A stretch of 63,998 nucleotides of DNA, counting the filler, from Dugesia japonica (Eukaryota): the NCBI GenBank assembly GCA_001938525.1. It is 6 parts of 6 records of this genome, joined end to end, with 100 filler letters (N's around TTAATTAATTAA, not from the genome) between each part and the next. Parts side by side here need not be neighbours in the genome. Positions count along the whole stretch, not along the records: positions 31,934 to 46,390 come from MQRL01642603.1; positions 46,491 to 55,658 come from MQRL01588296.1; 4 more parts are not named here. One strand, written 5' to 3'. The notes under the pieces are model-generated. The model was not told where the DNA came from. It did no database searches and worked only from the letters and a program-made list of their open reading frames with translations. Shown piece by piece: positions 2,741 through 51,170 of this stretch (position 1 is the stretch's first letter; every line of letters begins with the position of its first letter). The position numbers and the translations under genes are program-made.

Positions 2741-4696
2741 GAGTAAAGATTCAAATAAAGCAAAAAGAAACTTTTCACAAAAATAAACTAATGTAAGAAG
2801 GAACTTTTGTTCTGACGTAATTGAAATTACTTCAAGAAAAGGAACCTTCGAAAATATTTGTTTTTTTATTATATATCCCAACGTTTAAATTGCTAAATTT
2901 TAAGTAACTTTTGAATTTCGTTAAATTTATTATACTTAAGGTTTTTTACTGTTAAGGAAGCTGCATATATAGTAAGTACTTTGTAATTCAATTTTAAACA
3001 CTTTAATCAAGTATATTCGAAAATAGCGTTTGTTAGGTCCACTTTGAGTAAAAGAAAACAAAAACTAACAATTGAGGACAAATGTAAGATCTTGACTGCA
3101 TTGAACGATGGTACAAAAACCAATATTATTTGCACACAATACGGTGTAAACAAAAGTACAATTTCAAAGATCAAGAATAATAAAGAAAGCATTCAAGAAT
3201 TCGCAAAAAACTCAATACAGTCTACAAACAGAATTAAGAGAATTTCTACAGTTAAAGTTCCGGATATTGAAAACGCCATTTATCGGTGGTTTTTAAATGA
3301 GAGACTCAAGCATAACATAATCAACGATGATATGCTTAGTATCAAAGCGTTAGAATTCCGTTGGGATTTGAACTCTGATATTTCGTTTTCAGCCAGCCAC
3401 GGTTGAATTCAAAAATTTAGAAAACGGCATGCGATTCGGATCCTCAAAATAAGCGGAGAAAAATTATCCACCAATGATTCTGCTTTACCTGCATTTATTG
3501 AACGTTTTAAGACTAATATTCGACAATTAGGACTACGACCTGAGGAAATATACAATGCAGATAAAACAGGATTAATTCTCAAAAGTTTAAGTTCAAAAAC
3601 TTTAGTGACAAATCAAGAAAGAAATGCCCAGGTAAAAAAATCAGCAAAGAATGGGTAACCATAATGGGGTGTGCCAATGCAACTGGGCATCATAAACTAC
3701 CGATAATGATTATTGGGCGTTCTAAAAGTCCACGCTGTTTCAAAATTGCGACTTTACCTAACATGCACTACCGTTCATCATAAAATGCGTTGCAAACAAG
3801 AGCACTTTTTAAAGAATGGTTCCATGACGAATTTGTACCAGAAGTACAAAAAAATTTGATGCAGAAAAACTTGCCTCTGAAGGTAGTTCTGCTGTTGGAT
3901 AATGCCAGCTCCCATTTATGTGGAGAAGAATTGAAATCGAGTGATGGAAACATAACGGTGTTATATTTTCCTCCAAACACAACAGCGTTATTGCAACCAC
4001 TCGATCAAAATACTATCCGATCACTAAAAACATTGTACCGCAAATAACTCTTACTCAACAACGAAAATTTAGAAGAAACATTAAAGAATGTTACACTAAA
4101 AGAAGTTGTTTATATGGTGGTGCAGGCATGGAATGAAGTTAGTATTCAAACTGTCAATTCTAGTTTTAAGCATTAATTCTTCTCAGTTGATGAACTCATT
4201 TTTAATTTGCCACCGAATCCCTCTTTAGAAGAAGATGAAGTTCCATTGATAGAACTCTACCACCATGTAGTTCCAGGAAATAATATGAATGACGAGCAGA
4301 TATTGGATTAGGCAAGAGGAAGTAATGTAATGTAATGAGGGCGAAATAACTGAAAATATTAACATCGATGAAGTGGACAATAATGATGACTTTACAAACC
4401 CTGATGTTGATGAAGCACTCAGGGGCGCAAATGTTACTCTTAAATGGGCCGAATCTAAACTATCTATTTCTGATATATTGATTCTTCGGAATATGAAAAG
4501 TTTGTTTTTGTTATACATCCTTTTTTACTTGCTTGGTGACAAATATATAATTATAATACTATTAGATCTACGTAGTAATTTTTTTTGATAAAATACATGA
4601 AATTGTACACCAAATTCACAAGAAGAAACTTTTTACAGAAAAAGAAACTTTTTCATATTTTGTTTCAAAGTAGGTTCTTTTTTTGAATTTTTACTG
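2741..4696 (+). mobile_element. Decayed pogo/Tigger (CENP-B/jerky-like) DNA transposon
   Basis: ORF 3044: KRKQKLTIEDKCKIL..GVNKSTISKI (CENP-B N-terminal HTH), IENAIYRWF, FSASHG*. DDE_1 motifs follow: IYNADKTG, VVLLLDNASSH, FPPNTTALLQPLDQ, with stops and frameshifts. The right end ...ACTG|TA is at 4696. The left end at 2741 is a loose AT-rich match only. Confidence 0.9.
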
Positions 4697-8400: not shown

Positions 8401-8579
8401 CAGAGAACGACGAATGTATTTCCAGCTGAAATAGTTTTTGGAAAAAATTTACGCAAAGAATGGATTATTAGGAATGATAAAAAAAATTCAAATGAAAAAA
8501 ATCTAAAGCGTAAAAGAATTACAAACAATTTAAATAACTATGAAAATTCCAAAAATTTAGAAAAGGATAATACAATTAA
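5420..8579 (+). mobile_element. Decayed Ty3/Gypsy LTR retrotransposon (5' LTR, gag, RT, RNase H, integrase; protease and 3' LTR missing)
   Basis: LTR 5420-5655 (CGTTA...TAACA) followed by a TGG PBS. Gag has two zinc knuckles (CWACMEKGHIHSQC, CSHCKNSGYI*FQC). RT: FTTIDLDNAYYQ, RMPFG, VYLDDILIFS. RNase H: FILDTEAS. Integrase: IHIDFCGP, IHTDCGKSF, IERQFRT. Confidence 0.93.
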
Positions 8580-8650
8580 AGTAGGAGGATATGTACGCAC
8601 TACATCACATGCTTTTAGTGCCCCCTCACACACCCTTAACCCCCTTTTTT
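8580..8650 (+). mobile_element. Putative Polinton left terminus (AGTAGG...) abutting the Gypsy integrase
   Basis: AGTAGGAGGATATGTACGCACTACATCAC matches 20/29 ungapped with the AGTAGG segment at 22276. A C-rich tract and subterminal tandem repeats follow. Confidence 0.5.
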
Positions 8651-8679
8651 GATAGTTCCGCACTGCTTCACATGGTTTT

Positions 8680-11371: not shown

Positions 11372-11471
11372 NNNNNNNNNNNNNNNNNNNNNNNNNNNNN
11401 NNNNNNNNNNNNNNNTTAATTAATTAANNNNNNNNNNNNNNNNNNNNNNNNNNNNNNNNNNNNNNNNNNNN
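11372..11471. other. Assembly spacer N44-TTAATTAATTAA-N44 (cores also at 22422, 31878, 46435, 55703)
   Basis: An identical 12-mer with stops in all six frames is embedded in N runs five times. Confidence 0.97.
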
Positions 11472-12794: not shown

Positions 12795-14042
12795 ATTATT
12801 CACGGTGTATTAAACATTGCTTAAGTTATTCCTTTTATTTTTAATGTTTTTTCTGATTTATTATCTTTAAATGAATAACATTTTACTTTTAAGAATATTG
12901 CTTTAGTTATAAAGTTTTTTCCTTCTAATTCATCTTTAAATTTACATAAATCTGTTGGATGAATATATTCATTAAATTTACTAACTTCTTGTTCAATCAT
13001 TGTACCAATTGGTACAAATATCTTTAAAAACATACAATCGGTATCTGTGTAATGTATTTTGCCATCATTTATTCGTAGATTAATACAATCATATTTAATC
13101 ATAAATTCAATCATAAATTTATACATTAATAACTTAGATAACTCTAAAATAGTAAAACCTATGAAATTAAATTTATCATGAACAACTTTATTTCTTAATA
13201 GATGTACAGCAACTACATCTTGACTAAATATCTTCTTTGATTTAAAATTTGGTTTAGCTATGTGTCTTTTGTAAGTTAAATGATCATAAACAATTTCAAT
13301 ATTCTGTCTATTCCCAATATTTCTAATGTCTTTCCATAAAATGCATTATTCATTAACTTATAAAAAGTATACCAAATTTATCTCTGTTTCTTTTAGCTAT
13401 TACTCTTTTCGCGATATTAAAATCAATATAAGACTTTAACTAATTAGATTTTAAATATATTAATTTTCTATGTATTTGAATTATCTTTATTCCATGATCC
13501 ATATACCAATCTAACATTCTTCCTTCAATTACATAACGAAATTTATTATTTTGATTTAATATTAATTTTACATTAGGTTTATATCTATTAGGTTTAAACA
13601 TATTTTGATATTGACTAAATTCTTGTTCTTTTGATGTACATTTCTCAGGAAGAAATGAATAATACTTTGTTGCATCTTTATTACTATTTAGATATTTTAA
13701 ATCTACATTATAAACATATCCATAATTATATTTAATAACATTTTATTTGTATCATATTCATTTAATAATGTTCTTTGATAAATTAAATCATTACTCCATT
13801 ACATTTCACCGGTTGGTAATTCTTGTACCATTGCTGATGGATATAAAGAATTTGCATCATAATATAATAAATAATTCTCTTTTAAATATAATAAATGTAA
13901 TTCAGGTGTTTCATTAATTTTATTATTCATAAATTTAATTGATACATTCGTATTTCTATTATTACATGTTTCTTTTCTATTGCATAATACAGAACTTACA
14001 CCACCTCTAACTCCTTTTTCAAAGAATAGTAGTTTATCATAT

Positions 14043-16606
14043 TGTTGGGGTAAAATACCCGAGCATTGGAAAAATAACTCCAAGGACCCCAAATCATAAA
14101 CCACAGAAAAGAATTAATCACCAAGTATTATTAATAAAGAAGAATAAACAATTAAAAAGAAGATATGGAAAATCAAGAACATGAAGGCCACCATAATAAA
14201 GTCAACAACAACTATAATTAAAAGAATTATAATTTATTATCAAAAAATGAGAAAATTATCGCTAAAATAGAATGGTTAATTAACGAGGAAAATTAATTAA
14301 TTTTAATTCTAAAAAAGAAATTTAATTGAGTGAAAATCTGTTTTATGGAATATCTTTGCACTGGAAGATCTCAGAGAATCCCAACAAGAAAATTTGGAAA
14401 GCTAGAATCACGGGGAAATTAAATTTCGAAACGAAAAAATCCTACCATTCTCAAGAGGGCCAGGAAAAGGTTTTGAAGAACAGGTCAATGGGAGGCCAGA
14501 AAATAAAGGAATAATAAAGCCCTAAAAATCGCAAGGTGTCTTAAAAATAGGCACCAATGAAAAGTCTGAAAAAATAGAAAATTTAGGTCTGGTACCAATC
14601 AGAAGTGGCAAACTAGAGAGTAAAAATAACACCCAATATAAAGAGAGTCGGGGTGCAAAGAAAATCATATAAAAGCCTCCCGAAAACTTATCGAAACTAA
14701 CCTTAAATTTTTACTACTTGTATTACGACAATTTACACAAAAATTTTCGTTTGGAAAGCAAAACAAACTCTTATTTTAAATCGCTAAATTGCGTATACTA
14801 AATTTCATATTTACGTTGAGAAGGATTCAATTTATTGTACCAGAGGATAAATTTTCAAAGGAAGAACCCGTAGAATTTTAAATCAACTGTATTCAAACCC
14901 GTTGCAGAAGTCTCAAAAATATCAAATTTTCAAAAGTAATTTTTGTTGATAATAATGATAATGTATTTAAATGTTCAATAAATTTTTAATAAAAAACAAA
15001 TTTTATATATTATCGTTTTTAACCTGCTTTCTAATAATTTCATAATTTCGAGTGGTAAAACAAATAATTAAGCTGATAGATGTATGATGTTATGCAAATA
15101 AATTCCAATCATTAAAATTCAAATAAGCAGTTGTAGGTTTTCACAAGATTGTCAGTTATAGTACCACAATTTCAGACAGCTATGAGACAAACAGAAATAT
15201 TTCCACCACATAGACCATGTTTAATAGAATAAAATTTCTATTGCCGAATAATTGATCGTGGTAACTTACCGCTAGTGGAGGCAACTGTAGAAAGAATAAG
15301 GGACTTCGGAGAGCATATCCCCCAGCGGATGCTGGTAGCACAGTTCACATGCGGGAATCCCCCGGCCCCTCCTAGAATAAGAGCGGTGATTGACCATTTA
15401 ATTTGGCAGGTTAGAGTAACCGAGGGCTCAAAGAATTCGGAAAATATTGAGTTAGTGTCAAACAGTGAAAATTGATTTAAGTGTGTCTTCGAACAATAAA
15501 CGTTCCTTTTTATGATCTTCTAATGAATTTTACCTTGTTCTATATTTGATTTTGGTTAAATGTCGCATTTCAATAGGAACTGAACCTGTAAATAAAACGC
15601 GCAGTTGTGAGTTCGAGTAAACCCAGAAAAACTAATTTATCAATTATTGAATTTATCATTAGTAAATTTTGTCATTACCTACGGCTTCGTTTGATTACAT
15701 CAATTGCTAATTCAATTATTAATTCATTTAGTACATTCCTCCCTTAACCGGTCGGTGGCTCCAACTAAAAAAGTCCGAAAATTGGAGTCTTTCACCGACA
15801 ACATCCGGTCTATCCATGACCGTGAAAATAAACTGGTAAAGACTTACTCGAAATGCGTTGATGATAGACAAAGCCATCCAAACCCGAAATTGAATGTTAA
15901 ATTGTTTTTCTTTGAATAAATATTGTATCTATTTCGATATCTTGATTATTTCATTTTGTGTTGGCTTATCATTCATTTACTTTTAGTGCCACGAATACGA
16001 CTGCCAACTAGCCTCCGTCGTTGTCATTGACTAATCCAAAAACTTCTATTAGAGCGGCACCTTAAAAACAGAACAAGCATGCCCTATTACAATATCTCAG
16101 TCAATGAAACAGAATAATTAAGAAACTGGACATAATCGTTTAAAAACAAGGTGAACTGGCGGAACGCATGAAGCAGATCCTTACCAATAAAATAGATTTT
16201 TTACAGAAATACATCGATGACTTGTCCACTCGCCTCGAACTCGAGACGTGCGTCCAGTAGAACAGTGGCGACGATGAGGCCGCCTTCGATTTTGAGAATG
16301 GTGAGCCCACCCAGTGGCTTGACCCTGGGGCAGTAGACTATGTGTAATTTAAGACTGTGGTTCTGTAATAAAATTTTCTTTTTATGGTATTACGGATATA
16401 TATTAAATAAGGTATTTTAAAATGGGAATATTGAACCCGAATAAAAATATGTGTAAGTGTGCACTCCGAATAAGCTCTGGGAGTCAACCGCTTTACATCG
16501 ACAACCTAAACAGTGACTTTAGGTATATTCTTGAAAGGGGTCCCCTGAAAACTGTCTTTTCCCCCAGCCGTATTTTACCACACTAAACTCAGATGGAACC
16601 CCAACA
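14043..16606. mobile_element. 2,564-bp solo LTR (Gypsy-type) with ATAT target-site duplication
   Basis: TGTTGGGGT...ACCCCAACA termini. ATAT lies at both 14039-14042 and 16607-16610. No RT or integrase inside. The 3' ~450 bp is homologous to 49340-49791. Confidence 0.88.
16153..16347 (+). pseudogene. LTR-internal small ORF of unknown function (copy 1)
   Basis: KIDFLQKYIDDLSTRLELETCVQ*NSGDDEAAFDFENGEPTQWLDPGAVDYV*. It is 26/52 aa identical, ungapped, to the copy at 49391-49549. Confidence 0.7.
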
Positions 16607-29032: not shown

Positions 29033-29609
29033 TAATATTAATAATAATAATAATAATAATANNNNNNNNNNNNNNNNNNNNNNNNNNNNNNNNNNNNNNN
29101 NNNNNNNNNNNTATTAATAATGATAATAATAATAATATTAATAATGATAATAATAATAATATTAATAATGATAATAATAATAATATTAATAATAATAATA
29201 TAATAATAATAATTTTTACGAAAGGTTAATTTCACAATCAAAAGTAATTGAAGATCTACCCACCAATGATGAATAATAATTAATATAAATAAAATATAGT
29301 AGGTTTTTTGGTAGACACTTCGAATATAATGAAACAGCTTCAGTAAATATTATTTCACTCTATTTATTACACAGCTATACTAATATTTGAATCAACATTC
29401 TAGTATATTGGATAATGAATTACATAACTATAAAGTTTAGTTATTATTTTCATATTTTAACGTCTATCTGAATTTACAATTCTAAATATATGCTAATTGT
29501 CAATCAAAATTAAGAAATGGGTACTTTTCTTTTATATCCAGAGTAATTTTTTAAAATATTATTATTAATTTTTTATATTATAATATTAATATAATTATTA
29601 ACAAATAAC

Positions 29610-30340
29610 TTAACATGCCATTTAATTAAATATTTATTTAGCACAACAAGTTTCGACAGTATATATGTCATTTTCAGTGGAACTGTTTAACACNNNNNNN
29701 NNNNNNNNNNNNNNNNNNNNNNNNNNNNNNNNNNNNNNNNNNNNNNNNNNNNNNNNNNNNNNNNNNNNNNNNNNNNNNNNNNNNNNNNNNNNNNNNNNNN
29801 NNNNNNNNNNNNNNNTGACACCAGTTTGAACATTAATTTTTGGATCATATGATCTAATCATCAATGCTTCGCACATGATTCTTTTCCAAATAATCTTTAA
29901 AATTTCTGCACAGAATTTTGAAATTATTAATATTTATATCTGTCATATCTGTAAAAGGATTCAGGAACATAGTCGGTTAGATAATCGCAGTAATATTTCT
30001 GAACACAATATTCAATGTAAATGTCTTATAAATATTAATAATTTCAAATATTCAGTACAGAAATTTTAAAAGAAGAAAATTGGGAAAGAATCATGTGCGA
30101 AGCATTGATGATTAGATCATATGATCCAAAAATTAATGTTCAAATTGGTGTCAATAAATCTTTATTGAATGTCTTTAATTAATTGGAATTTTATTGAGAC
30201 TGTTACATAATCGATTGCATAATGCGGAACTTAAGTATATACTCTATTCTTAGTGTTAAACAGTTTCCTTGAAGATGACCGATATACTGTCAAAACTTGT
30301 GCTAAATAAATATTTAATTAAATGGCGTATTAAATTATTT
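29610..30340. mobile_element. Penelope-like 3' end / pLTR in inverted duplication
   Basis: The GIY-YIG C-terminus (CKRIQEH...MCEALMIRSYDPKINVQ) and its 3' UTR are present on both strands as inverted copies (29610-29930 and 30040-30340). Confidence 0.8.
29650..29690 (-). ncRNA. Degenerate minimal hammerhead ribozyme motif of a Penelope pLTR (second copy ~30260-30296, +)
   Basis: CTGAAAATGAC-atatatact-GTCGAAAC and TTGAAGATGAC-cgatatact-GTCAAAAC; the consensus CTGAAGA-TGAC..GTC-GAAAC is a hammerhead core. Each copy carries core mutations. Confidence 0.5.
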
Positions 30341-30948
30341 ATAAATAGATTGCCATTATTCTTTAACTTTTTGTATAATTATTAACAATTAATAATTAAC
30401 AAAATTTTATTTTATATACACATGATACAATTATTTCTTTTCTGATGAAGGCAGATCGAATCGTTTCCTAATTAAGTTTGATGGGTTATATTGAAGAATA
30501 GAAAAAAATAAACAAATAAATGAGATATCTAATATTATTATATTGGACTAATCAATATATTTACATAACAATATAAGTAATAAATAATAATATTAAAATA
30601 ATGACCCCGGATAACATAAAATTACGAAGAAATATAATTAAACTATTTACGAATATGATAAATGAACAAACGAATTTTCAAGTTTTCCCGAGTGTATATT
30701 TCCGCAAATTTAGTTAAAAATATCATAAATAAAAGAATTATTTGTTTACTGTAAATATCATATAACTCAATAAAATGTTGACAATTATCTTCATTAGAAA
30801 AATGTTTTTAATTTCTGAGTTGAACTTCAATTAATTTGACTTAATTTCCCATTGTTAATAAATTATTAATTAATTAGTCTTGCATCCTGTCTTAAATATT
30901 TGTGAAAATTATTCCGAACTTTATTTACTGAATCTTATTTAAAAACTA

Positions 30949-31933: not shown

Positions 31934-32019
31934 CTAATTCTAGATAATGACAATTTATTTTTTAAATCTAAAATTGTATAATCTTCATGTAAGCTAGGGT
32001 ATAACTTGTCAGTGTCCAT
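31934..32019 (-). CDS. N-terminus of the Polinton LYP-L membrane-type protein (truncated by contig end)
   Basis: MDTDKLYPSLHEDYTILDLKNKLSLSRI; similar to the ORF at 12441. Confidence 0.5.
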
Positions 32020-34889
32020 TTTCTTTAAGAAAAATACTCTTTAAATAAATTCCTTTAGGTAAAGTTATTTCTATAAAGTTAATATTTTCATTAAATGTTT
32101 TGTGAAAGAAATATTCCGTTTTATTAAATAAAGGCTCATTATATTCATGTGTAGTATTATTTATTTTAATGGAATATTTAATTTTTTTAATATCAAAATT
32201 ACCATTTATTGAACATTCTAAACTATTTATACGCGTCTTTATAGAAACAACAAATGGTTCTATAAGAAAAAATTGTTTTAATTCGGATGAGCCCATTATA
32301 ACCCCATTTCTTTTAAAATCTATTCTTTCCACTTTTTCATTAATAGTAAAATATGGAAGATCTTTTTCATCAGCTAAAAAAAATAAAAATAATTGAGTTT
32401 TATCAATAAAAAAAATAATAAGTAATTATTAATTATTTCATTTATACTTTTAAGTGTTAACTCATCACCATTTTCAAAAAATTCTTTATTAAATAATCTT
32501 TTATTAAATAATCAATTCTTTTAATTTGAATATTATGAAGTTCTGGTTTTATTTTTTCATATTCTTTTAATAATGCTTCAGGAATTTTAACCGCAAGTAA
32601 TTTAACATTTAAATCCATTAAATAAATTCCTTTTGGTAAAATTATTTGTATAAAGTTTATATTATTATCTTTAATAATTTCATTACTTTCTGGATAAATT
32701 TTCATAATATTATCATTGGGTTTAACAAATAAAAATGATACTGCAATTTTATTAAATTTAATAATATAATTAAATTTTGGAACTTCACAAAAACCATCTA
32801 TANNNNNNNNNNNNNNNNNNNNNNNNNNNNNNNNNNNNNNNNNNNNNNNNNNNNNNNNNNNNNNNNNNNNNNNNNNNNNNNNNNNNNNNNNNNNNNNNNN
32901 NNNNNCCTTTTCTCATAAAATCAAAATCATATACATATTTATCTATAACAGTAAAATATGGAAGTAAATCATTTTTTTAGTAGGAATTATTGAAAGTAAT
33001 ATTTGTCGGGAGGGTGAATTAAAATAAGGTAAGTAATTATCAATAAAATGTTTTATATATTTAGTGTCATATGTTTTAGAAAAAATATTAAATTTATCAA
33101 TATAAATTTTATGTAGGGTTGGTTTTATTATTTCATATTCTTTTAATAAATCTTCATAAATTTTAAAATTATATGTTTTAATAATTAAATGATTTAAATA
33201 AATATTTTCTGGTAAAATTACTTCAACATAATTTATTTTTACATCTTTATTAATATCAGTACTTTCTCGATAAATTACTATTTTTTTAGTTTCGGGCGTA
33301 AAATAATATTCTGTTGCTATTGCTATATTATTAATTTTAATAATGTAAATAAATCGTTTTTCACACATACCTTCTATAAATATACAAAGTTTTTCATTAA
33401 TGTTAGCATGTAATTTAACAGAAAAATATTCTTCAAGATAAAAACTATTGTTTATCATTTTACCTTTTCTTTTAAAATCTAAATGATGTACATATTTATC
33501 ATTTATATGAAATTGTGGAAGAATTTGATAACAGTTAATTGTTAATAATGAATTGTTATTTGGTATAAAAACATATGGTAAGTAATTATCAATTGTCTCT
33601 CTTAAACTTTTAATATTATTATTTTTAAATAAAACATTAATTCTATCAACATGAATTTTGTGAAGATTTGGTTTTATTCTTTTAAATTCTTTATTTAATC
33701 TATCAGCAATTTCTAATTTAAACAATCAAACACTTAAATCTTGTAAATAAATTCCTTATGGTAAAATTATTGAAATAAAATTTATATTAACATCTTCATT
33801 AATTTCAGTACTTTCTCTAAAAATATCAATAGAATTATTTTCAGATTTAACATATAAAAATCTATAATATAATTGATTAATTTTAATGGTATAAAAAGAT
33901 TTTTCAATATCACAATAACCCATTATATTTATACTAATTTTTTCATTTATCTTTGTATGTAAAATAATGGTTAAAGATTCTTCAAGGTAAAAATATTGAA
34001 TATTTGACACAAGTTTCATTATACCTTTTCTTTTAAAATCTAAATTATGAACATATTTACTCATAACAGTAAATTGAGGAAGTGTATCATATTTTTCATA
34101 ACATATAATTGAAAATATTATTTTGTTGGTTTGTATAAAAACATAAGGTTAGTAATTATTAATTATTTCTTTTAAACTTTTAAGTGTTAAATCTGAAAGT
34201 GTTTCTTTATAAGTTTCAAATAAAACATTAATTTTATCATCAAAAATTTTGTGTTGTCTTAATTTTATTGGTTTAATTTCTTTAAGTATTTTTAAAATTT
34301 TAGATCTAAAATCTTCTATATATAATTTAATATCATTAATATTATTTAAATATTGGTCAAATGTTTTTTTTTTATCTAAATTAAGAGGTAATTACATAAT
34401 TTTATTATTTAATGTGAGAATTTCTTTTTTAATTTTCTTACTTAAATCGCTTCGCTGGTCTTCTGACAAATCAGGATCACTTAATTTTTTTAAATTAGAA
34501 ATTAAATCAATTCTTTTAAATGGGAAAAGTATTTGATTTATTCTTTTAATATCAGAATCAATATTATCAAATGTATCCNNNNNNNNNNNNNNNNNNNNNN
34601 NNNNNNNNNNNNNNNNNNNNNNATTAAGTTCTTTAGAGAAATCTATATTATTTAATTTGTTTAATTCATCAGCTTTAAATTGTAAATATGTTTTACTAAT
34701 TGTGGATTTATCTATCTTTAAAACTTTTGTAAAAATTAATTCATGTGATTGTAATTTATTTTCTAACTCTTTAATATATTTTAAATTAACTGCATCATTT
34801 AAATCTTTAGGATCTTCTGTTATTTTTAAAGTTGTAATTGTGCCAACTGTTTCATTTACAAATTTACTTTCATTTTGTGCATCTGACAT
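32009..34889 (-). pseudogene. Fibre/spike-like protein: N-terminal DP-D--DAVNLKY anchor, coiled-coil, then four tandem ~185-200 aa repeats
   Basis: Track ORFs 34392, 33756, 32943, 32457 and 32009 join across stops and frameshifts. The unit INNYLP..LP(Q/Y)FT...DFKRKG..F..EE...IKIN...INFI.I.LPKGIYL recurs at ~34155, 33585, 33035 and 32425. Confidence 0.7.
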
Positions 34890-34949
34890 TTTGCATCTAC
34901 AGTTTTTAATATTTGTGTAGTATTAACACCATGAATACTTTCACCAAAC

Positions 34950-37640: not shown

Positions 37641-40600
37641 TTATAAACAATTTAGATTTTTATTAATCATGTCTAATCTTAAATGGTACATGTTACATTT
37701 TACACAATAATATTTATTTCCATGTGGCCATGTTGTTGTTCCATTATCTTCTATAATTCCCTTATCATCATATGCCATTAGAGCTATTTTCTTTTGTTCA
37801 ACTAATTCAATTTCATGACACTCAGATTTTAATGAATAGTTTGTACCATAAATTATTTTCTTAGGATCATTTAATACATTATCAAAATCTTTCATTAATA
37901 GTTTATTATTTTTCTTTACTCCTTTATTTCTAGAATCAAAACCCGTTTCATCATAACTATAAGCATAAGATTTTGCTTTTATAAAATTAGCTTGATTTAT
38001 TTCAGAATTAGGTATTTCATCCTTCATCTGAAATAGTTCATTTCCAAGTAAAGTTTTTAATTTTTCTAAATTATCTCTATGTTTTATCTCAAAAAATATA
38101 CTATCAGTATCTGAATAATGTATTTTATAATTATCATTACCAATTAATGGATCCATTTGATTGTATATAAAATCATACATTACTTGTTTGGCGTGTTCAA
38201 GTATTGTGAATCCAATATATGGAAATTTTTTATATTTTAATTTACCTTTTTCCATATTCATTGCTGCAATTTCTGCTTCATTTGAATCATTAATAGTAAA
38301 GATTTTACTTGACTTAAAAGTTATTTTACTTGCAAACTTTAGATAATCTTTCTCATTATCTACAATTTCTATGTTGCATCTATTTCTTATATTTTCTAAT
38401 GTTTTNNNNNNNNNNNNNNNNNNNNNNNNNNNNNNNNNNNNNNNNNNNNNNNNNNNNNNNNNNNNNNNNNNNNNNNNNNNNNNNNNNNNNNNNNNNNNNN
38501 NNNNNNNNNNNNNNNNNNNNNNNNNNNNNNNNNNNNNNNNNNNNNNNNNNNNNNNNNNNNNNNNNNNNNNNNNNNNNNNNNNNNNNNNNNNNNNNNNNNN
38601 NNNNNNNNNNNNNNNNNNNNNNNNNNNNNNNNNNNNNNNNNNNNNNNNNNTATATTGGGATCAGGTATAGTAATTACCCAATTGACCTTGTTGGTAATTA
38701 TATCATCCAACAGTCAAACATATCGGATTTTTCAGGCATACATGCAAACATACAATTACATAACATAAAATATTTAGTTTATCATTATTATAATTAATCA
38801 CATCTCACACTACCTAAACACACATAATTTTTCTTGTCTAATTGATTAAGTGTTAATTTAATATTATCTTTTAATATTTTCTTCTTAAAACTTTTTTGGT
38901 AATTACTTAACATCTCAGGTCTAATATTTATTCTGTCTGGTGCTAATGGGAAATATTTAGTTTTGTCATGTATTTCTGGTGGATAATCTTAATCCACTTC
39001 ATAAATAAAATTAATGTTATCATTTGACATTTCATATATTAAATCTTTACACTCAATAAGTTCACCAGTTGGTAATGGTTTAGTCATGCATGATGCATAT
39101 AATCAATTTTCATCTAAATATTTTATAAATGTATCATCAAAATAATCATCTGAAAATATTTGTTTTCCATGTAATAATAAATTTAATAATTTATTCATTT
39201 CTCCTTTATTTATTCTTTTAAATTTGGGACTTTTAGTATTATTATGTGAAAATACTTGACGTTCGCCACATACACCAGAATATCCACCTCTAATACCTTT
39301 CTTCAATTAATAAGAAAATGTCATATGTTTCAGGTTTAGCATATTTCAGTTTAATGTCAGCATTTAGCATTCCTGTTTCCCATGCATAACCTGGTGCTGA
39401 ATAAGAATAACTTGGATCTAATTTAAGATTGTTTTCTAGAAAATCAGTTAATATTAATACATCAAGTTTCATGTAATGTAACATGTATTCCCACATATTA
39501 TTATAGTTACTTTGTGGTCCACATATATCATTTTAAAATGATTCATATTCTTCATCAGATATTTCTTTTTGTGATAATGTGTTAAAGAAATCATCTTTTG
39601 TTGATAATCTGTTAGATTTTAATAAATTTTCAACTTCTTGAATATTTCCCCCTTTTACATATTCATAGGGAAATAGAGCCTTTTTAGGTTTTAAATTAAA
39701 TAATGTTAATATTGGATATTTATTTGATTGAGTTAATAATTTACCCATTACTTCAACTGATGTAAATGGAAGTAATCTAGCCGAATCTAAAAATTTAATA
39801 TTTTCATATTCAAATGAAATGTAATTATCAGATGAGTGTGGAATTATTTTTTTTATTTTACTTGGAAAATTAATCATTAGTTCTCTAAAAAATAAATGGT
39901 TATCATAACCTGATGCGTTATGAAAATAAAATGGAATAAATAAATTTTTAATTGATAGATCATTTACATTACATTCATTAAACGACCATCCTCTAAATTC
40001 ACCTGTGAAATGATTGTGATCTTTAACTGGATTTTCATATATTAATTTATCACAATATCTACATTTTGTGTCAAATGTATATTCTGGATGATTTATACCT
40101 TTATATGTTTTAAATAATTTGTTATCTTCTATTTCATTTAATTTATTATTAATATCTTCTAAAAATTGAAAGAATTCATCATAAATGTTTTCACCAGTAA
40201 ATTCATAATATTTACTTTTTAATAATTGTGGATAATCTGATTTTAAATAAACACTTAAAGATAAAGCTTTTTGTTTTCTAGTAAGAGAATTTGTATATGT
40301 TTCAAAATCACCAATTAGAATAAATGGTATTTTATTTATTTGATAAAATTTATTAAATGAATAATAATTTTTATATTCAAAAATAATGTTGTTTGGTTTG
40401 TGCCTAATACATGCATCTTGATGTTTATTTAAAACCGCTTCGCTTGAGTAACAATTCATACATCTGGTGCATAGATAATTTTTATTTCCATTTTTACTAA
40501 AGAATACACCTATATCTCTACATAAAATGTAATGATCTTTATATACTAATAAGTTACATTTATTTTCTGATATATCTGCTTTAATTGTAAAATGAGAAAT

Positions 40601-41632
40601 GTGAAGTGGTTCAAGTTTCTTATAATCATTTACACCATATACATTAATTTGATAATTATTTAATTTTTCAAATTTACTTATATCATCAATGTTCATTGGA
40701 AATTCAAAATCTTTATAATTTAAATCTGATAAATAAGGATAATAATTACTTGCACATGTAGGATTAGAATTAAAATATTTATGTGCTAATATTGAATATA
40801 AGAAACATTTGTTATCTTTATTTTCTATATTTATTACACCAGGTTTTTTAAATGGTAATTTACAATAAGTCGCACCTGCTAATGATTGATATTTAGAAAG
40901 ATCTAATGTAAAATCTATAATGTGCGACATTGCCCATCCACTTCCTTCTCTATCTTTATCTTCTAAATATTTTTCTAATTCATCAAATATTTCATTGGTA
41001 CTATTTTCAATTTCAATTTCCATTATAATTCTTTTATTTATTGAATAAGATGTAAAATCTCTTTCGATATAATCATTATTTATTATTTTTCCATATCTAC
41101 ATTTAACACCCATACTTATAACTATCTGTTTAGCATAATTAAAATATTTAGTAATAATTTCTTTAACTTGATTATAAAATATGTTAAGATCTCTAATTGT
41201 TTCATCAAATATTTCATATACATTTAATTTCATTTCTACTTTAACATCTTTTAAATATTTAATTTTATAATCTTTATATTTACTTAAAATATCTCTTATT
41301 CCTTGTTTAAAATTAATTTCTTCTTTATCTTTTGATTGATTAAGTAACATTTTTTTATGTCTATCAGAATTGTAATGTGTTCTTGCATGATTTTGTCTTA
41401 AAAATCGTTTGATGCAAATTTCACAGAATAATGCAACAATTTCTGGATTACCACATCTTGTTGCATTTAAATGTTCTTGTAAACTATTTTGTGAATTAAA
41501 TTTTTTTCTACATGTTTCACATTGAAATTCATCATTTAATCTATAACATATTCTTGATCTTTGATGACCTTTTAACCCAGCTAAATTCTTAAACTCTTTA
41601 TTACAATTATTACATTTAAATAAAGTACTCAT
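37641..41632 (-). pseudogene. Protein-primed family-B DNA polymerase with three N-terminal C2H2/C2HC zinc fingers
   Basis: EGSGW, NKDNKCFLYSILAH, GDFET (ExoI), DHNHFTGEFRG, FHNASGYD (ExoII), FLDS, KALFPYEY, KGIRGG, YLDEN*LY, YSDTDS, KGV. Broken by stops, a frameshift and an insertion near 38800. Confidence 0.95.
38651..38805 (-). mobile_element. LTR-like insertion inside pPolB
   Basis: The polymerase frame (KLTLNQLDKKNYVCLGS) gives way abruptly to non-coding TGTGATTAAT...TGTATG sequence running into a gap. Confidence 0.45.
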
Positions 41633-41743
41633 TTTCTAAAGGGATAATTTAATCCTCTTATTTTATTTTTATATTATTCCTCTTAAAATATTACATTTAT
41701 CATGTTTTGTATTTTCTATAGAATTAATTTGAAACATATTATT

Positions 41744-43340: not shown

Positions 43341-44658
43341 ATGGAAACAACTAAAATTAATCTTGATAATAATACTAATTTTCAACATTTATTTTTGAAA
43401 AATGATGTTTTAAGAATTTTACCTTCATCTGGTTCAATAATTTAATGTCTTCTGGAGATATAGTTTTTCAATCTTTACAATCTTCAAATCCATTAGATAT
43501 TTGTAATTCAATGTTGTATTTTAAAGTTGAATAAGAATTTGGTGGAGCTGACGCTCATAAAGATAAAATAACTTAAGAAAATAATTGGTTTCCAAGTTTA
43601 TTTAAAACAATGAGATTAACTTTAGGATCTTCAGATGTAGAAATAATTAATGATTCAGGAATTTCATCAACAATATTAAATTTTATAACAACTAGTTCAA
43701 CTTATAAAAATATTTATGGTGAATTATAAGGTTGGTTGCCAGACACAAATCAAGGAGATTTAGATGTTAAAAGTTGGAATGCAAATCTACGTTTTTATAA
43801 AAGAAATAAACTTTATCCCAAAAAGAAATTTGAAGGTTATTTTCCTTTGAAAAATCTTTTTGGGTTTTTACAATGTTACAATAGATAATTATATAACACA
43901 ATGATTGAATTTACTTGTAATCGACAAATGAATGATAATTTAATATTTTATGGTGATACAGGTGCAACTGCTACTTTAAAATTAATGACACTAGAACTAC
44001 ATATTCCAGAATGCATATTAGTTCCAAAATTGGAAGTTAATCTTTTAGAAAGAATTAACACAAATAAATCTATCCAAGTTTCATTTTTAAATAGAATTAC
44101 ATCAAAAAAAACTTTAGATTCAGGAAATTATTATTCGGTAAAACTAAGTAATTTAACTTATAAACCAAGATATATATTTTTTGTAATAAAAAATTCAGAA
44201 ATTTCTTATCAAAAGAATAATAATTTATTTATCCAACAAAGTAGTAAAACTGTTGAAAATGAAAAGAAAGAAAAAGTTACAACAAAACATTTTCTTAAAA
44301 GTATTCAAGTACAATTAAACAAAACAAATTATCCTATAAATGTAAATTTAATATTAAAAATAATGAAATGATTTTTCCATATTTAAATTATGTAAATTGT
44401 TGTAAAGACATTTTAACAGAACCACAATTATCTCTTCAAGAATTTGGTGTTTTATACCCAATCTTTTGTTTTGATGGTAGTTCCCAAGGCGATAAATTAA
44501 ATATAAATACCGTAGATATAACTTTACATATAACTAAAGATACTGATTTTAAAGGATCCTTATGTTGGTGTATATTAGAAGAAAAACATATTGAAATGAA
44601 ATTATCAAATAGTAAAATTGTAATGATTGAAAATAAACGAGGAGAAAGTTTAGGTTAA
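43341..44658 (+). pseudogene. Major capsid protein (double jelly-roll, hexon/PY)
   Basis: NNWFPSLF..MRLTLGSSDVE, GWLPDT, FPLKNLFGF, KPRYIFF, IQVQLN..NYP, LYPIFCFD. Several frameshifts and stops. Confidence 0.88.
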
Positions 44659-44736
44659 TATTTTAACCACTGCAGCAGTCCTAAATTCTCTATTTTTAAA
44701 AACTTTTAAAAATAAAGCATTTAAATTTTAAATCAA

Positions 44737-46073
44737 ATGGATAATAAATATATTTGTGAAAATTGTAACAAAATATTACTTAGAAAAAATAAAGCTAGAC
44801 ATTTAAAAATATGTAAAACTGAAGAAGGTGATCACAAAGCTCAAACCTAAGATGGAGATCTTCAATCGTCTAATTAACTTCAGCAATTTTAAAACCATTT
44901 ACTTGGGAAAAGTATCCGGGAGAAAGATATTTGTTTAAACATAATTATACTGGACCTGGAACAAAATTAGATTTAAGATTAGATTCCTAAGGTAAACCAA
45001 ACCTTGGAGAAGAACCAATTAATAGAGTTGATGCAGCTGCTTTTAAACATTATTTATCTTATAAATCAGAAGATTTAAGAGATAGACATTTGGACGATGT
45101 AAATTTAATTCATGATTTAAATAATATCAAAAATCCAATCACTTCTAAAAAAATACAACGAGCTCTTGTAGAATTAGCAATAAAAGGTAAAAGTATTTTA
45201 GGTGCTGGCATAAGTCTGAGTGAAACGAATACTTTTCCCAAAAATAAAGAATTAAATTTAAAAAATAAAGAATTATTATCAAATGAACGTCATAAAGATT
45301 ATAGAAAACCAAAACATTTTCTAAAAGTAATAATAAAAGAAAAAGATAATACTTGAGGCTGTGATATTATTGATATGGTTAAAAAATCAACTGATGGATT
45401 TAGATATATTTTAGTTTGTATTGATTTATATTCTAGATATGGTTTTTGTGTACCAATAAAAAATAAAAATCAAGAATCTTTACGAGAAGCTTATGAAAAT
45501 ATATTTTAAGAAAATAATAGAATTCTTGATTTTATTTGGTTTGACAAAGAGTCAGCAATAAAATCAAAATACTTTGATAAATTTCTTTAAGAAAATGAAA
45601 TTAATTTGTATCATACTAAAAATGAAGATAAATCAATTTTTGCTGAAATATTTATTAGGACTTTAAAAACTAAAATGTGGAAATACTTAACATTAGTTGG
45701 TAATCAGAAATGGAATAAGAACTTGTTGGATAAAACTGTAAATGATTATAATAATACAATTCACTCTAGTATAAAAACAACTCCAAAAGAAGCTAGTGAA
45801 AATCCAGTTAAAATAAAAGAAATAATAAATCAACATAATCATGAAAATGATAACTTTAGTTTTAAACAAAAATTTAAAATTAGAGGTCGAGTTAGAATCT
45901 TTAAATATAAATACAAATTCGAAAAAGGATTTACAGCTAAATGGACAAATGAAATATTTGTAGTAGCTCAAGTTTATAATACAAAACCAATAACTTATGG
46001 AATTACAGATTAAGAAAACTAAAAGATTTTGGGTAGATTTTATGATAATGAACTTCAGAAAAATGTTTTATAA
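44737..46073 (+). pseudogene. Zinc finger + parvovirus-type phospholipase A2 fused to retroviral-like (rve) integrase
   Basis: CENC..RHLKIC. Then a single frame from ~44895: HNYTGPGTKL..PINRVDAAAFKHY.SY (PLA2), T*GCDIIDM, ILVCIDLYSRY, IWFDKES, AEIFIRTLKTKMW, YNNTIHSSIK, FEKGFTAKWTNEIF, GRFYDNELQ. Confidence 0.9.
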
Positions 46074-47126
46074 ATTTTAAATTAATAAATTAAAAATAAG
46101 TGAAAATTCTTTCAATTTTATTTTAAAAGGCGCTCTAAATGAAGAATCAAAAAATATTTTAAAAGAAGAATTTAAACAACAATTAAAAGAAGAATTTAAA
46201 AAAGAATCAGAAGAAAATAAATATTGAAAGAAATCACTCGCAGCCGTAAATTTAAGAAATCCAACAGAATTATTTTGGAAGTGGTTAACAGGTAATACTT
46301 ATTTATGGATTGCAGAAGTTGAACAAGAAGAAGAAACTTCAGTTTTAATTAATTATTTTAATTTTAAAAATATGGGTTCATATAGTATGANNNNNNNNNN
46401 NNNNNNNNNNNNNNNNNNNNNNNNNNNNNNNNNNTTAATTAATTAANNNNNNNNNNNNNNNNNNNNNNNNNNNNNNNNNNNNNNNNNNNNCTTAAAATCA
46501 AAAATTAATTATTACATCCTTTTAGAAACAATACCCCAAACAAAGATATCAGAAACAAGCCAGATCAATCAATACTTTATAATATATAACAGACAAGTCA
46601 TAAAATACCATTCCTCTACATACTACATAATGCAGTCAAAACAACAAGTTACACACAATCAGCAATCAAACAATAATAAACAGAGAATACATCAATACAA
46701 GCAAGCAGAGCACAACATAACAAGAAAAGATAACAAAAATAGCAAAGCAATACAGTCAATGCACAATAAATCTACACTCTCGACAGACATTCCTTCATCC
46801 TCATCCTTGGTCACAAAAGGTGTCGCGCATTTTTATAACCATATCCAAAGCTTTGTATTCAAAGATAAAGACAGTGAACCTAGGATAGAAGTTTTTAACG
46901 GTGTGAATACAATCCCGAATGTCCTAAAAAAACAACACTTTTGATAAGGATATCATTATGATACGATTTCAGAAAGCTCAGAGATACTCACTACAACAAT
47001 NNNNNNNNNNNNNNNNNNNNNNNNNNNNNNNNNNNNNNNNNNNNNNNNNNNNNNNNNNNNNNNNNNNNNNNNNNNNNNNNNNNNNNNNNNNNNNNNNNNN
47101 NNNNNNNNNNNNNNNNNNNNNNNNNN

Positions 47127-48284
47127 ATGCTGGAAAACAACACGCTGATATTAGAAGGAAAAATAGATCCGGGAATAAACCAAATAAAAGTCGCAATACA
47201 AGATATCCCAGCCGTCCTTTGTGTAGAATTAATTTATCATGATCGCATCCCTGTACCTTTCCCTATATACACTGCTATAAAAGGGCATTGTACGGTAAAC
47301 TATATAGACCTGATTAATCATACATCGTTCCTTAAATATGCAATCTTGACAGAAATTGATATAGAGCAACTAATAGTATATGTGGATATGATAACAGTCA
47401 AGGATTCATATTTCAATTTGCAAGTGGTGGAGTTGACGATATTGAATTATAAAGGGGAGATTATATTGGATGAAACCTTATGCCTACGAGAAAGGATAAA
47501 GCATTTCGACACAGCAATTACAGGGTATACCCATGAAAAAATAAAGAAATGTAAAGACGCATATCCTATAATTCTGAAAGCACGACAACTACTATATGGG
47601 AAAATACTAGTCGGTTTTGAATTAAGAAATAAATTAACAAGTTTACACATTGACCACAGACATGTTATTGGTATCAGAGACCTTGCAGAAGATAGATGGC
47701 GTAAGATGTATACTCCAAATGTAAAGAAGTTGAAATTGATCAACCTCATGGAGGCAGTATTTAAGCCTATAAGACATGATAGAATCATCAGGGATATGTT
47801 AAAAACGGCGAGAGAAAAGGCGCAAGAGTCGACGGCAAAACGGATAACATTCGTCAAGATTACATATAAACAAATAATTACTCAGCAACCGTGGCAAGAT
47901 TCTATATGTCCTGGTAGTAATCCGGTTGTAGAAAACAATGAGACAATGTTGCAAGAGGTCATGAGTAGAGAAAAGGAGAAACCAGATCGTATAATATGGA
48001 TATTAGACTCCGATTCAGATATGGAAAGAAATGGAGAGGAGACAGATGGAAGCACGGATAGCCAATCCAATGTGGTTAATGATACGGACACGGAGTGGGA
48101 CGAGGAAGACTTACCAGAGGAACTTAGACCACATAACGATGCAGAGGAACAGCAAAAATTAGTTGAAGATATAATGCGACGAAATCCTAAAGGGATAAAA
48201 ACGGATATGGATGCATCTGAAGATGACGAACTTCCAGAACAAACGATATCACGGAAAGAACTAAAGGAAGCTGAAAGTCTTTAG
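47127..48284 (+). CDS. REX4/ISG20-like DEDDh exonuclease-fold protein with degenerate active site and acidic tail (probably extends upstream to ~46630 through the gap)
   Basis: IVYVDMI..VELTILNYKGEIILDE..RERIKHFDTAITG..LLYGKILVGFELRNKLTSLHIDH..IRDL aligns with ALDCEMV..RVSIVNY.GEV.YD...DYRT.VSGI...L.GRILVGH.L.ND...L...H...RDT. Confidence 0.7.
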   Translation: MLENNTLILEGKIDPGINQIKVAIQDIPAVLCVELIYHDRIPVPFPIYTAIKGHCTVNYIDLINHTSFLKYAILTEIDIEQLIVYVDMITVKDSYFNLQVVELTILNYKGEIILDETLCLRERIKHFDTAITGYTHEKIKKCKDAYPIILKARQLLYGKILVGFELRNKLTSLHIDHRHVIGIRDLAEDRWRKMYTPNVKKLKLINLMEAVFKPIRHDRIIRDMLKTAREKAQESTAKRITFVKITYKQIITQQPWQDSICPGSNPVVENNETMLQEVMSREKEKPDRIIWILDSDSDMERNGEETDGSTDSQSNVVNDTDTEWDEEDLPEELRPHNDAEEQQKLVEDIMRRNPKGIKTDMDASEDDELPEQTISRKELKEAESL

Positions 48285-48519
48285 TTAGTTAAATCTTTAG
48301 AAGTTACGAAAAGGAAAATACAGATCATGTTCAATGTATTTTAAAATCACTAGCTACGAATACAACAAATAGTATTGAGAAAATGAAGATAGAAAATATT
48401 ATTGTGGAATTCGTTCAGTAGAAACAAAAACGATATAGGTCATTTTAAAATGGTGAAGCATGAGGGCCGTTTTTCCATGGCCAGCGTTCCTTTTCACCAT
48501 CAACTCAGGTGGAACACCA

Positions 48520-48730
48520 ACATTACTATTATTAATTATTATCACTATTATCACTATTATCACTATTATCACTATTATGGTTAGTATTATTATTCCTGAG
48601 TTATTATTATTATTATGTTCATCATTATTATTATTATTCAAAATGCTACTACTATTCACTATTATTCTTATGGTACTTTTGATATTATATTTACTTTCAT
48701 CGTTATCATTCTGAATGTTATTATGGTGAC
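48520..48730. repeat. ATTATCACT 9-mer and degenerate (ATT)n tract
   Basis: Directly visible. Confidence 0.85.
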
Positions 48731-49339
48731 TAGAGTTAGTGTCATTAATAATTAATACTAGTCTCTTCAGTACAACTCTTGTACCATTATCACTCTTGAG
48801 TTATCATGTTCCTTAATTTTTGTTCCTGGCAGTGTCATTATCGTTGTTTTATTTTAATCAATTACGACATAGCCCGCGTATATTTATATTCGTAGCGTTA
48901 TAACACATTTCTAGAACATGCACATATACTATGATCATAACTATAGCAGGCATGATTTATCAGTTGTTAATAAACATAGTGGTCGATGTCATAATATTTT
49001 TATGGCAGGTTTTTGTGTGGCAAAATAATAATTCCCGTGTTTCGCCAGAATAATAGAAATCACCGCCGTTAACGTTCATTAATTGCACATTAGCGCCAAT
49101 CAATTTTGTTTTTTTTTACCTCCGTTCAGACCCCTGTTACGGTTCCCACCGATAATTTACTAAGTAAACCCGAGTAATGCGAAGCTGATATGGACATTCC
49201 TGGCTAAGCAATTTAAACCTCTAATACATAAGGTTACCTCAAGTTATCATATGTTTAGCCTATTCACATTTAGACACATGAATAGTATCTTAACTGAGGT
49301 CCTAAATGTAATCCGACGAGAAAGAGAACGAACTCGCAG

Positions 49340-49549
49340 GAAACAGCTGATCGGACACTAGTTGGAGGAGCACACCAAGCAGAAGTCCATAAGATAGAAC
49401 TTTTACAACAATACATCGCGGATCTGGCAAACCACCTTAAACAGGAAACCTGGATCCGTTGGAAAAGCGATGATGACGAAGCCGTTTTAAATTTTATGAA
49501 TGGTGAGCTTACCCAGTGGTTAGATCTTGGGACACTACAATTCATGTAA
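49340..49549 (+). pseudogene. LTR-internal small ORF of unknown function (copy 2)
   Basis: KIELLQQYIADLANHLKQETWIRWKSDDDEAVLNFMNGELTQWLDLGTLQFM*; homolog of 16153-16347. Confidence 0.7.
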
Positions 49550-49949
49550 TTATCAGAAAATGAATTTTAATCTCAAATTTATTGTTATTTGTTTGACAGC
49601 TAAATAAGGGGAAATAATGAACCCGTAAATAAAGGTATACGAATGAGCACTTCAAATATAAGTTGGAAGTAAACCGCTCTGTACCGAAGACCTAATAGGG
49701 GACATTAGGTAAATTCTTGAACGGGCCTCCTGAAGACTGTTTTTCCCTTAGCCAAATTTTTTCTTCTACAAACTCAAATGGAACCCCAAAAAAAGTATAA
49801 ATTACGAAAATTGAAAATTATTTTAGAAAATAAAATTAATTAAAAAATAAATAAATTACGTAAATTGAAAATTATTTTAGAAAATAAAATACAAAACTTA
49901 TATCAAAAATTAAAAAACTTTTCACATCTAAAATTTTTTAATCAATTTA

Positions 49950-51170
49950 GTCGAAAAAGCTGTCGGTGCATTAATGCTTAGCTTATGAAGTCTAATCATT
50001 AACGCTTCATACAACACTCTCTCCCAGTAATTTTCAAATTGCTTAAACAAAATTTAAAAATTTGAAATTTGAACAATCGAATTACAATTACTTTTTTTAA
50101 TTTTTTATGCTCAGCAATATTACTATCACCACCAAAACGATTATGCTCTTGAACCATTGTACATAAATCACGGGAAGTCTCTACTATGTATGTGGCATTA
50201 CACCAGTTACATTTAAATTGATAAACAAGGTTAAAACACAAATCAATTGGTGTATAGGATTTATTAACAAAGCTATTAACAATCTTATATGAAGTTGAAA
50301 CAATTTTCAACAAAAGAAGATCCTTAGAAGCTTTTAGAATCAAATTCTTAAACTATTTAAAACCTTGAGAAAACCGAATCAATAAAACTAATCGCCCAAT
50401 ACAGTTTGATAAAGTTTTATCAAGTTCACTATTATTTAACACAGTTTTAATCTTTCCATCGAAATTAATGTTATTACCAACCAATATTTTTACATATGTC
50501 TGCAAAGCCAAAGAATTTAAAAATTGTTTATTATATCAATTTGCTTGCAATAACTTTAATAAAAAGATAATATAGCGTTTCATGATCTTTTACCTTTTGC
50601 AACATCAAATTTTCAATTTCTTTTTAATGATGGTTGGTATAGACAGGTTTATGGTGCCGAGATGGGATTCCCAATAGCGACAACATTGGTTTCTTTTTTC
50701 TTTTCTAAATTAGAGAATAAGATTAATGATTCTTCTTCTTCTAAACCTTAATTTTATAAACGTTATTTTGATGACATTGTTTTTGTTTGTGAAAATCGTT
50801 CTCAAGTACATCAGTCTTTGGAGTATGTGAATGACTTGCATCCAAATATAAGCTTTACGCTTAAATAAAAGATAAATTCAACTATTACAGTTCTTGATTT
50901 GCTTTTTGAAACAAAGAATATATCCTTTAAAACAGAAATATATGAAAGTAAACGGATACCGGTTTGTTTATAAATTCTGCCAGTTTTTGTGACATAAAAT
51001 ATGAAAACAATATGATTAAAGAACTAATTAATCGTTCTTGTTATCTCTTCTACTTTTACCAAAGCAGGCAAAAGTCTAAATAAATTAATTGACTTACTTC
51101 ATAATAATGGGTATTCTAAATTATCTACGGACAAATTAGTTAATCTGCACCAGAATTCAAGAGCATAGTT
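49950..51170. mobile_element. Decayed Penelope-like element with internal inversion
   Basis: GIY-YIG on minus (NLVYQFKCNWCNATYIVETSRDL..VQEH). RT on plus (WYRQVYGAEMGFPI..LENKI..YKRYFDDI..LHPNISFT). Confidence 0.85.

Follow-up and report, generated by a model that had tools for sequence, protein, structure and literature searches.

A degenerate, apparently inactive ISG20/REX4-type nuclease gene in a multi-copy LTR element of the planarian Dugesia japonica

Exonuclease genes have been described before as cargo of animal retroelements: the bdelloid rotifer LTR retrotransposons Juno and Vesta, as well as the Terminons, carry an intact DEDDy (DEED) exonuclease as ORF3 (PMC5408684), and DnaQ-like cargo in LTR elements has been noted again in a further paper (PMC6338049). 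Flatworms harbor errantiviruses with a GAG-ENV-POL layout and an HSV/gB-type envelope (PMC13524379) and the Burro/GYPSM1 elements (PMC6431247); the text of the former mentions no exonuclease, DEDD or cupin and its seven supplements no exonuclease, RNase_T or DEDD, and section 7 of the latter describes no DEDDh or cupin accessory gene. Among cellular proteins, ISG20, ISG20L2, REXO4 and plant SDN1 (PDB 1wlj, 7yw5, 5z9x) share the DEDDh fold; all are active and lack a barrel domain, and SDN1 is reported to trim Argonaute-bound small RNAs (PMC6123492). Maelstrom and EXD1, host silencing factors from the small-RNA field, have kept an inactive DEDD fold for RNA binding, and such dead DEDD proteins retain RNA binding in piRNA biogenesis (as cited in PMC5408684). 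Planarian LTR elements are themselves piRNA targets (PMC8532177).

We describe here a nuclease-like gene in a 63,998-nucleotide stretch of D. japonica DNA (GCA_001938525.1; hereafter the window), in which six parts of contigs are joined by N-linkers starting at 11372, 22378, 31834, 46391 and 55659. The gene lies on the contig at 46491-55658 (MQRL01588296.1), which starts right after a linker. The window has the composition of AT-rich eukaryotic DNA, compatible with the A/T content above 70% given for the Schmidtea genome (PMC11410931). Nine public sequencing runs from four studies cover part of the stretch (eight of the nine labelled organism A), and copies of the gene were compared via the contigs of these runs (X1, X2, X5 and X8). 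An Rfam search of 46491-50000 gave no match. Elsewhere in the window, the neighboring contig holds Polinton/adintovirus-like remnants (43889-46067 and 39533-41635), among them parts of a double jelly-roll capsid protein (E 1.5e-6), a segment resembling phospholipase A2 (E 0.002) and a 700-aa frame bearing a zinc finger and endonuclease VII; 32009-34922 (minus strand) contains four to five diverged tandem units of ~550-590 nt each with open frames, one of them with a weak DUF7339 match. A bZIP Maf-type frame (963-1337, E 3e-14) is broken by 41 N, a Tc5/pogo-type transposase and a Gypsy pol, both decayed, lie at 2987-4300 and 6372-8652, and a long, imperfect inverted repeat is found at 29596-30347. 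On the contig of the gene itself, 49999-51100 carries fragments that are presumably Penelope-type, resembling a GIY-YIG domain (minus strand) and a reverse transcriptase (plus strand); Pfam found no match on the one piece of this region that was scanned.

Like the cargo of Juno, Vesta and the Terminons, the gene family to which this locus belongs has a DnaQ-like 3'-5' exonuclease fold in a separate ORF behind pol, and many of its members share with the rotifer proteins a Glu at the third acidic site. By their description in PMC5408684, however, the rotifer ORFs are RNase D-like DEDDy proteins with intact sites, whereas the family here is of the DEDDh ISG20/REX4 type, with an N-terminal beta-barrel, an env-bearing host element in relatives, and dead members. 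The rotifer subtype, marked by Tyr in ExoIII, was not encountered: the 29 relatives with complete sites carry His-x4-Asp, and the nearest structures are DEDDh. The precedent of DEDD cargo in rotifer retroelements, to which the earlier note had appealed, is published, yet it concerns a different and intact subfamily.

An open frame of 385 aa had been reported for 46630-48284. Such a frame (P0001) is indeed open over 47127-48284, but the whole span holds two frames (Table 1), and since the ATG of P0001 is made of the first three bases past a run of 126 N, the length of 385 codons is set by the gap. The frame starting at 46630 has 104 codons, closes at 46945-46947, and matches family positions 20-55 in register; the FY, P and N of this N-terminal opening are conserved in 22-26 of 28 relatives. 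Taken together with the piece at 46928, it matches the family weakly (7.0 bits; 3 of 1000 shuffles scored higher), and the assignment is nevertheless favored because order and spacing fit, a single contig spans the gap in each of three runs, and contigs of other copies with a different length at the break make up 13-26% of depth (6-8 of them in X1, X2 and X5, 3 in X8). Judged from the sequence, the 385-codon frame is likely the 3' part of a gene of ~550 codons that begins at 46630 and is broken near 46.93 kb, by a break that may be private to this copy, common to several or an assembly artefact; the long relatives, for comparison, measure 417-660 aa. The acidic tail proposed before was borne out, with 38 D+E and 14 K+R among the final 125 residues; it varies in length among copies near 48010-48180 and has no counterpart in the five metagenome loci described below (L001-L005).

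Table 1. Features of the nuclease gene and of the related LTRs (positions in the window)
Feature	Position	Strand	Remarks
5' gene part (putative)	46630..46944	+	polar leader, then FY..IPN, the start of the family N-terminal domain
N-terminal domain, continued in another frame past the break (putative)	46928..47000	+	ends at the gap
Gap of 126 N	47001..47126		would contain mid-barrel strands including the family's conserved His
End of N-terminal beta-barrel and linker helix	47127..47375	+	conserved Glu retained
ISG20/REX4-type DEDDh domain	47376..47890	+	GIRDL family signature retained
Acidic low-complexity tail and stop codon	47907..48284	+	ends the 385-codon frame
LTR 3' end	48285..48522	+	ends CCAACA; homologous to ends 16606 and 49791
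Second LTR, 3' remainder, outside the element (probable)	48523..49791	+	ATT microsatellite; end CCCCAAAA
Solo LTR, reference, on another contig	14043..16606	+	TGTTGGGGT...ACCCCAACA; ATAT flanking both sides

Pfam gave no match for P0001. Against PDB sequences it nonetheless found ISG20 (E 0.005) and SDN1 (E 0.0075), an atlas search placed it with RNase_T clusters (0.91), and a profile made from 28 relatives, with P0001 itself left out, matched it at E 5e-35; the family profile in turn matched ISG20L2 (E 4e-30), ISG20 (E 5e-21) and SDN1 (E 2e-19). The ExoI-III motifs of the DEDDh superfamily are present in order, with ~13 additional residues ahead of ExoIII, and the D, E, D, H, D set of active DEDDh exonucleases is absent: D87 is kept, and I89, K169, E234 and R239 stand in the other four positions. 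Because one of the four acids is left and the His is gone, the site would be catalytically dead. The earlier claim of a DEDDh fold with replaced catalytic residues stands as to the fold and to the loss of most sites, but its YxD register for ExoI, which a lone SDN1 alignment also gives, is off by two: the family profile aligns gap-free through ExoI, giving D87-x-I89, a pairwise check agrees, and the first Asp is therefore retained.

Folded as a single sequence, P0001 reached a pLDDT of 36 only, and the structure was read from the degenerate relative P0016, whose model has pLDDT of at least 90 for 284 residues and is confident over residues 11-360. This model superimposes on ISG20L2 (7yw5; Z 18.1, rmsd 2.4, 157 aligned) and on ISG20 (Z 17.9, rmsd 2.6, 158 aligned), and its residues 2-154 on the prolyl-4-hydroxylase barrel 2jig_A (Z 11.8, rmsd 3.1, 145 aligned); Foldseek also returned cupins (E 2e-4) and viral AlkB-type proteins. 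The double-stranded beta-helix is present in P0016, and its counterpart in the window falls largely within the 126-N gap. Metal ligands of 2OG-oxygenases and cupins take the form HxD/E...H or HxH..E..H. Among the 28 relatives the barrel has one conserved His (26 of 28, and four of five degenerate relatives) and one conserved Glu, and no conserved metal-ligand set was seen. An atlas search with the N-terminal domain of a further relative (P0026) gave no usable match.

A HMMER search with the core domain among 1.84 billion representative proteins returned 80 matches, only 24-38% identical to P0001. In word-based protein searches P0001 had no relative of near or shorter length, and a word search with alignment A2 returned P0016 itself only, blanks that are uninformative beside the 80 HMMER matches; IMG/VR scans with P0099 and P0088 found no family member, and none of the 30 cluster names looked up was informative. 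The tree was built from 72 rows (P0001 and 71 matches), with five fragments and four two-domain proteins excluded and the catalytic columns removed. It separates 42 element-family rows from 30 cellular REX4/ISG20-like rows (SH-aLRT 95 in a quick tree in which the cellular rows fill less than half of the columns), so that the element family splits from the cellular enzymes. The 42 proteins form a family in which a cupin/2OG-oxygenase-type beta-barrel is joined to an ISG20/REX4-type DEDDh domain; most carry a GIRDL-type signature and, if their length allows, an N-terminal domain of ~170 residues. All five catalytic residues are present in 29 of them, eight (P0001 included) are degenerate, and five are fragments missing some of the sites; five of the other seven degenerate members are long ORFs, in the size range given above. 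Branches are longest for the degenerate members, at 1.3-2.2 where the median is 0.69. With six degenerate and 24 intact rows (the fragments P0014 and P0071 excluded), a single origin of the dead members appeared in 0 of 200 bootstrap trees, with 2-5 changes and a p-AU of 0.047 under long branches; catalytic loss may well have occurred more than once within the family. Clusters of three intact members (P0017, P0030 and P0033) turn up repeatedly, in several assemblies, on 14-17.6 kb contigs that may be near-complete elements.

The gene is multi-copy. In X1, one of four DNA-type runs used for the depth profile, contig depths over 47175-48314 add up to 630-2700, while the single contigs listed have 6-12; the sum is not a copy number. 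In X2, 375 contigs cover 521 bases of the core. The copies are 80-99% alike and share the dead catalytic sites. Variation in at least 30% was found at 68 places; of the 40 listed, 31 are silent and 30 at third positions, whereas random placement of the same change classes (20000 times) gave 11.7 +/- 2.8 silent changes and a maximum of 24. No indel in the core domain reaches 30%. Among the 40 listed places of the 68, the lone variant in the five catalytic codons is silent and no copy that retains the DEDDh residues was seen; nor can the X2 change classes at or above 30% yield the family's His or Asp at ExoIII. Minor subfamilies that differ at ExoI or ExoII may exist, with 40 of 68 places listed. 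Since the gene is multi-copy and shows a silent excess among its copies, simple decay is disfavored: the copies have the dead site in common and keep it under purifying selection, unlike the decay of one copy, and the check proposed in the earlier note, whether the loss is fixed under such selection, came out in its favor among the listed places.

The ORF also belongs to the element, as had been assumed, and the element has its own LTR end. The stretch 48275-48525 aligns to the other two LTR ends with scores of 108.5 and 110 (300 shuffles for each reached at most 83.5 and 90.5), and in a scan for LTR ends across the window 48522 ranks next after those two, scoring 69.0 where the best unrelated place reaches 51.5; a weak score at 1401 was judged to be noise on inspection. 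Contigs show joints at 48522 and loose ends ahead of 48524, and depth rises about tenfold at 48315-48542 and drops to ~100 beyond the microsatellite. At all three ends an ORF stop lies 238-259 nt upstream of the terminus (238 nt from the gene stop to 48522) and a poly(A)-like hexamer 163-166 nt before it, AATAAA in two of them and AATACA, 163 nt off, at 48522; the ORF is a small one in two cases and the nuclease gene in the third. Multiple copies and an LTR terminus in CA, both seen here, are traits of LTR retrotransposons. We consider it fairly probable that the nuclease element stops at 48522, lying nested within a second and rarer LTR. Were its own LTR equal in length to the solo LTR, the gene would sit in U3; some retroviruses carry genes inside the LTR. 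A purine tract plus TG start was not found between 46491 and 48522 save for one inside the ORF, and because the contig starts at 46491, the absence of an upstream LTR start is uninformative.

The solo LTR has 9-nt inverted ends, and its last 455 nt are 65% identical to 49363-49792. The nuclease gene is absent from it, as claimed before (best tblastn E 1.4, no profile match). Pieces of the small ORF in the second LTR occupy 49164-49549; they are 47% identical over 57 aa to 16157-16347, where the solo LTR has an internal stop, and this ORF has no counterpart in L001-L005. Of the picture drawn in the earlier note, in which the nuclease lay upstream of the small LTR ORF with no start between them, the missing start is correct (TGTTGGGG occurs in the whole window at 14043 only), but the LTR end at 48522 intervenes. 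In the same way the gene is cargo of a multi-copy, LTR-type element, although probably not of the LTR that carries the small ORF, and the proposal that one LTR family swaps cargo is not supported, since the nuclease element is a separate family of higher depth. What survives is a weaker form of cargo variation, among three related LTR ends.

One metagenome scan with seven close relatives yielded the five loci, of which L002 and L003 are too short to show gene context. In two of the five (L001 and L004) an intact member lies just behind a giant Gypsy polyprotein, a frame of >3000 aa with a fusion glycoprotein, protease(s), RT, RNase H and integrase; the fusion glycoprotein stands in frame before the protease-RT-RNase H-integrase part, the layout shared with the errantiviruses (PMC13524379) and Burro/GYPSM1 (PMC6431247). 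These polyproteins (L001:2-9040 and L004:1-9624) have a gB-type env, two to three protease-like repeats, and long post-integrase extensions that end in a hydrophobic stretch; by eye, the env resembles Schmidtea rows in the PMC13524379 supplement. The upstream frame of L005 is membrane-protein-like at its C-terminus, with nothing more of env-pol. Small charged, coiled-coil-like ORFs occur at L001:9207-9875, L001:11418-11684 and L004:11571-12008, flanking the nuclease gene, and Pfam gave no match for them. An acceptor-like AG after a pyrimidine-rich run stands 0-2 nt before the ATG in three loci (L001:10001, L004:9959, L005:~1006), which suggests spliced subgenomic mRNAs; no such AG precedes the ATG at 46630 in the window. 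In L001 a purine tract plus TG, identified by eye at 13822-13831, suggests that the gene is internal to the element. No pol or env was found on the window's contig. The element of the window likely belongs to this env-bearing Gypsy (errantivirus/Burro-like) family, a link drawn from homology, with env-pol seen just in the relatives.

RNA from the gene is scarce. With 10.5, 13.6 and 11.6 million records read, the three RNA runs yielded 1, 7 and 5 matching reads, all less than 95% alike; in the two paired runs nearly all first mates lie on the plus strand, an antisense orientation if the libraries were stranded in the usual way. The few reads, at 47550-47700, stem from a subfamily that has diverged; K169 is unchanged in them, and at 47699 those of two runs switch to different sequence. 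The family is near-silent in these samples, which fits piRNA repression but also an extinct family.

What the dead fold is selected for can be read in several ways; the nucleic-acid-binding decoy or silencing suppressor suggested in the earlier note may be one. The reading we prefer, tentatively and as a plausible rather than a probable one, is that a 3'-terminal accessory gene of an env-bearing Gypsy element encodes a non-cutting RNA-end binder directed against nucleases and piRNA silencing. The gene would be expressed from a spliced or LTR-driven transcript, its beta-barrel and dead ISG20-type fold would bind RNA ends without cutting, and the bound protein would shield the RNA of the element, or small-RNA intermediates, from host 3' nucleases and so counter silencing of the element. 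We favor it because the retained fold is under selection, is akin to ISG20 and SDN1, and has a precedent in the dead DEDD proteins of piRNA biogenesis, although Maelstrom and EXD1 are host factors and the family here is element cargo. Against it count the near-absence of RNA, the frame break in this copy, the weak 5' match, a fold model taken from P0016, the low identity of the relatives, and the absence of pol and env from this contig. Charge gives RNA binding no special support, since the net charge of the window protein's nuclease domain (+7) is just one unit above the most basic of its intact relatives (-7 to +6), and a gain of positive charge by dead members is likewise unsupported. A bolder and unlikely extension would have intact members trim piRNA 3' ends while repeatedly evolved dead ones cap or sequester them, as an LTR-borne counter-defence of env-bearing Gypsy elements of invertebrates.

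It is equally unlikely, in our judgment, that the protein is a decoy or scaffold that competes with a host DEDDh enzyme (REXO4/ISG20L2-like, PAN2 or PARN-like) for partners, its tail mimicking nucleic acid, instead of binding RNA: the closest folds are host RNA-processing enzymes, the tail is strongly acidic, and the long branches of degenerate members look as they might after a change of partner, but are also expected on simple release from catalytic constraint. Somewhat more doubtful is a selected function in the N-terminal barrel, as a reader of a ligand, nucleotide or modified base or in dimerization, with the nuclease fold as structural support. The Y, P, N, H and E of the barrel persist in intact and degenerate members alike, and the domain resembles 2OG-oxygenases and viral AlkB-type domains; yet it has no conserved HxD...H metal set, the silent excess was measured within the nuclease domain, and in the 5' piece 4 of 8 listed differences, from few rows, are silent. 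We find it more doubtful still that the protein merely assists replication in the particle or RNP (RNA chaperone, packaging, 3'-end protection in reverse transcription) with no role in counter-defence, in which case intact relatives would act as trimmers of RNA or DNA ends belonging to the element. The constant 3'-terminal placement in the element, the acceptor-like AG in L001, L004 and L005, as in retroviral accessory genes, and the 3'-end processing proposed for rotifer cargo (PMC5408684) speak for such a helper, but a needed trimming activity would not survive catalytic loss in 8 of 42 members, possibly repeated. Recent pseudogenization, with the silent excess inherited from an active ancestor, is very improbable: the frame break, the near-absent RNA and a silent count that covers 40 listed of 68 places would suit it, whereas the silent excess was found among copies 80-99% alike that already share the dead sites, the fold core and GIRDL have been retained in spite of replacements at four sites, and long ORFs are found among the other degenerate members.

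Exonuclease cargo in LTR elements, in the form of the intact DEDDy ORFs of rotifers, was thus already known; new is a second, different capture, of a DEDDh domain together with a beta-barrel, tied in relatives to env-bearing Gypsy elements and offering a natural series of intact and dead versions. Our literature search found no cupin-DEDDh accessory gene and no dead form of one, and the original Burro paper (Nature 2018), its supplement or Repbase may already note the ORF. To our knowledge, whether animal retrotransposons encode counter-measures to piRNA silencing is an open question, and the pair of intact and dead forms provides a direct test of it. If the bolder extension, with trimming and capping members, is true, an LTR element of a regeneration model animal would encode its own piRNA counter-defence; even without such a role, the gene is an unannotated accessory gene and a marker by which such elements can be recognized in metagenomes.
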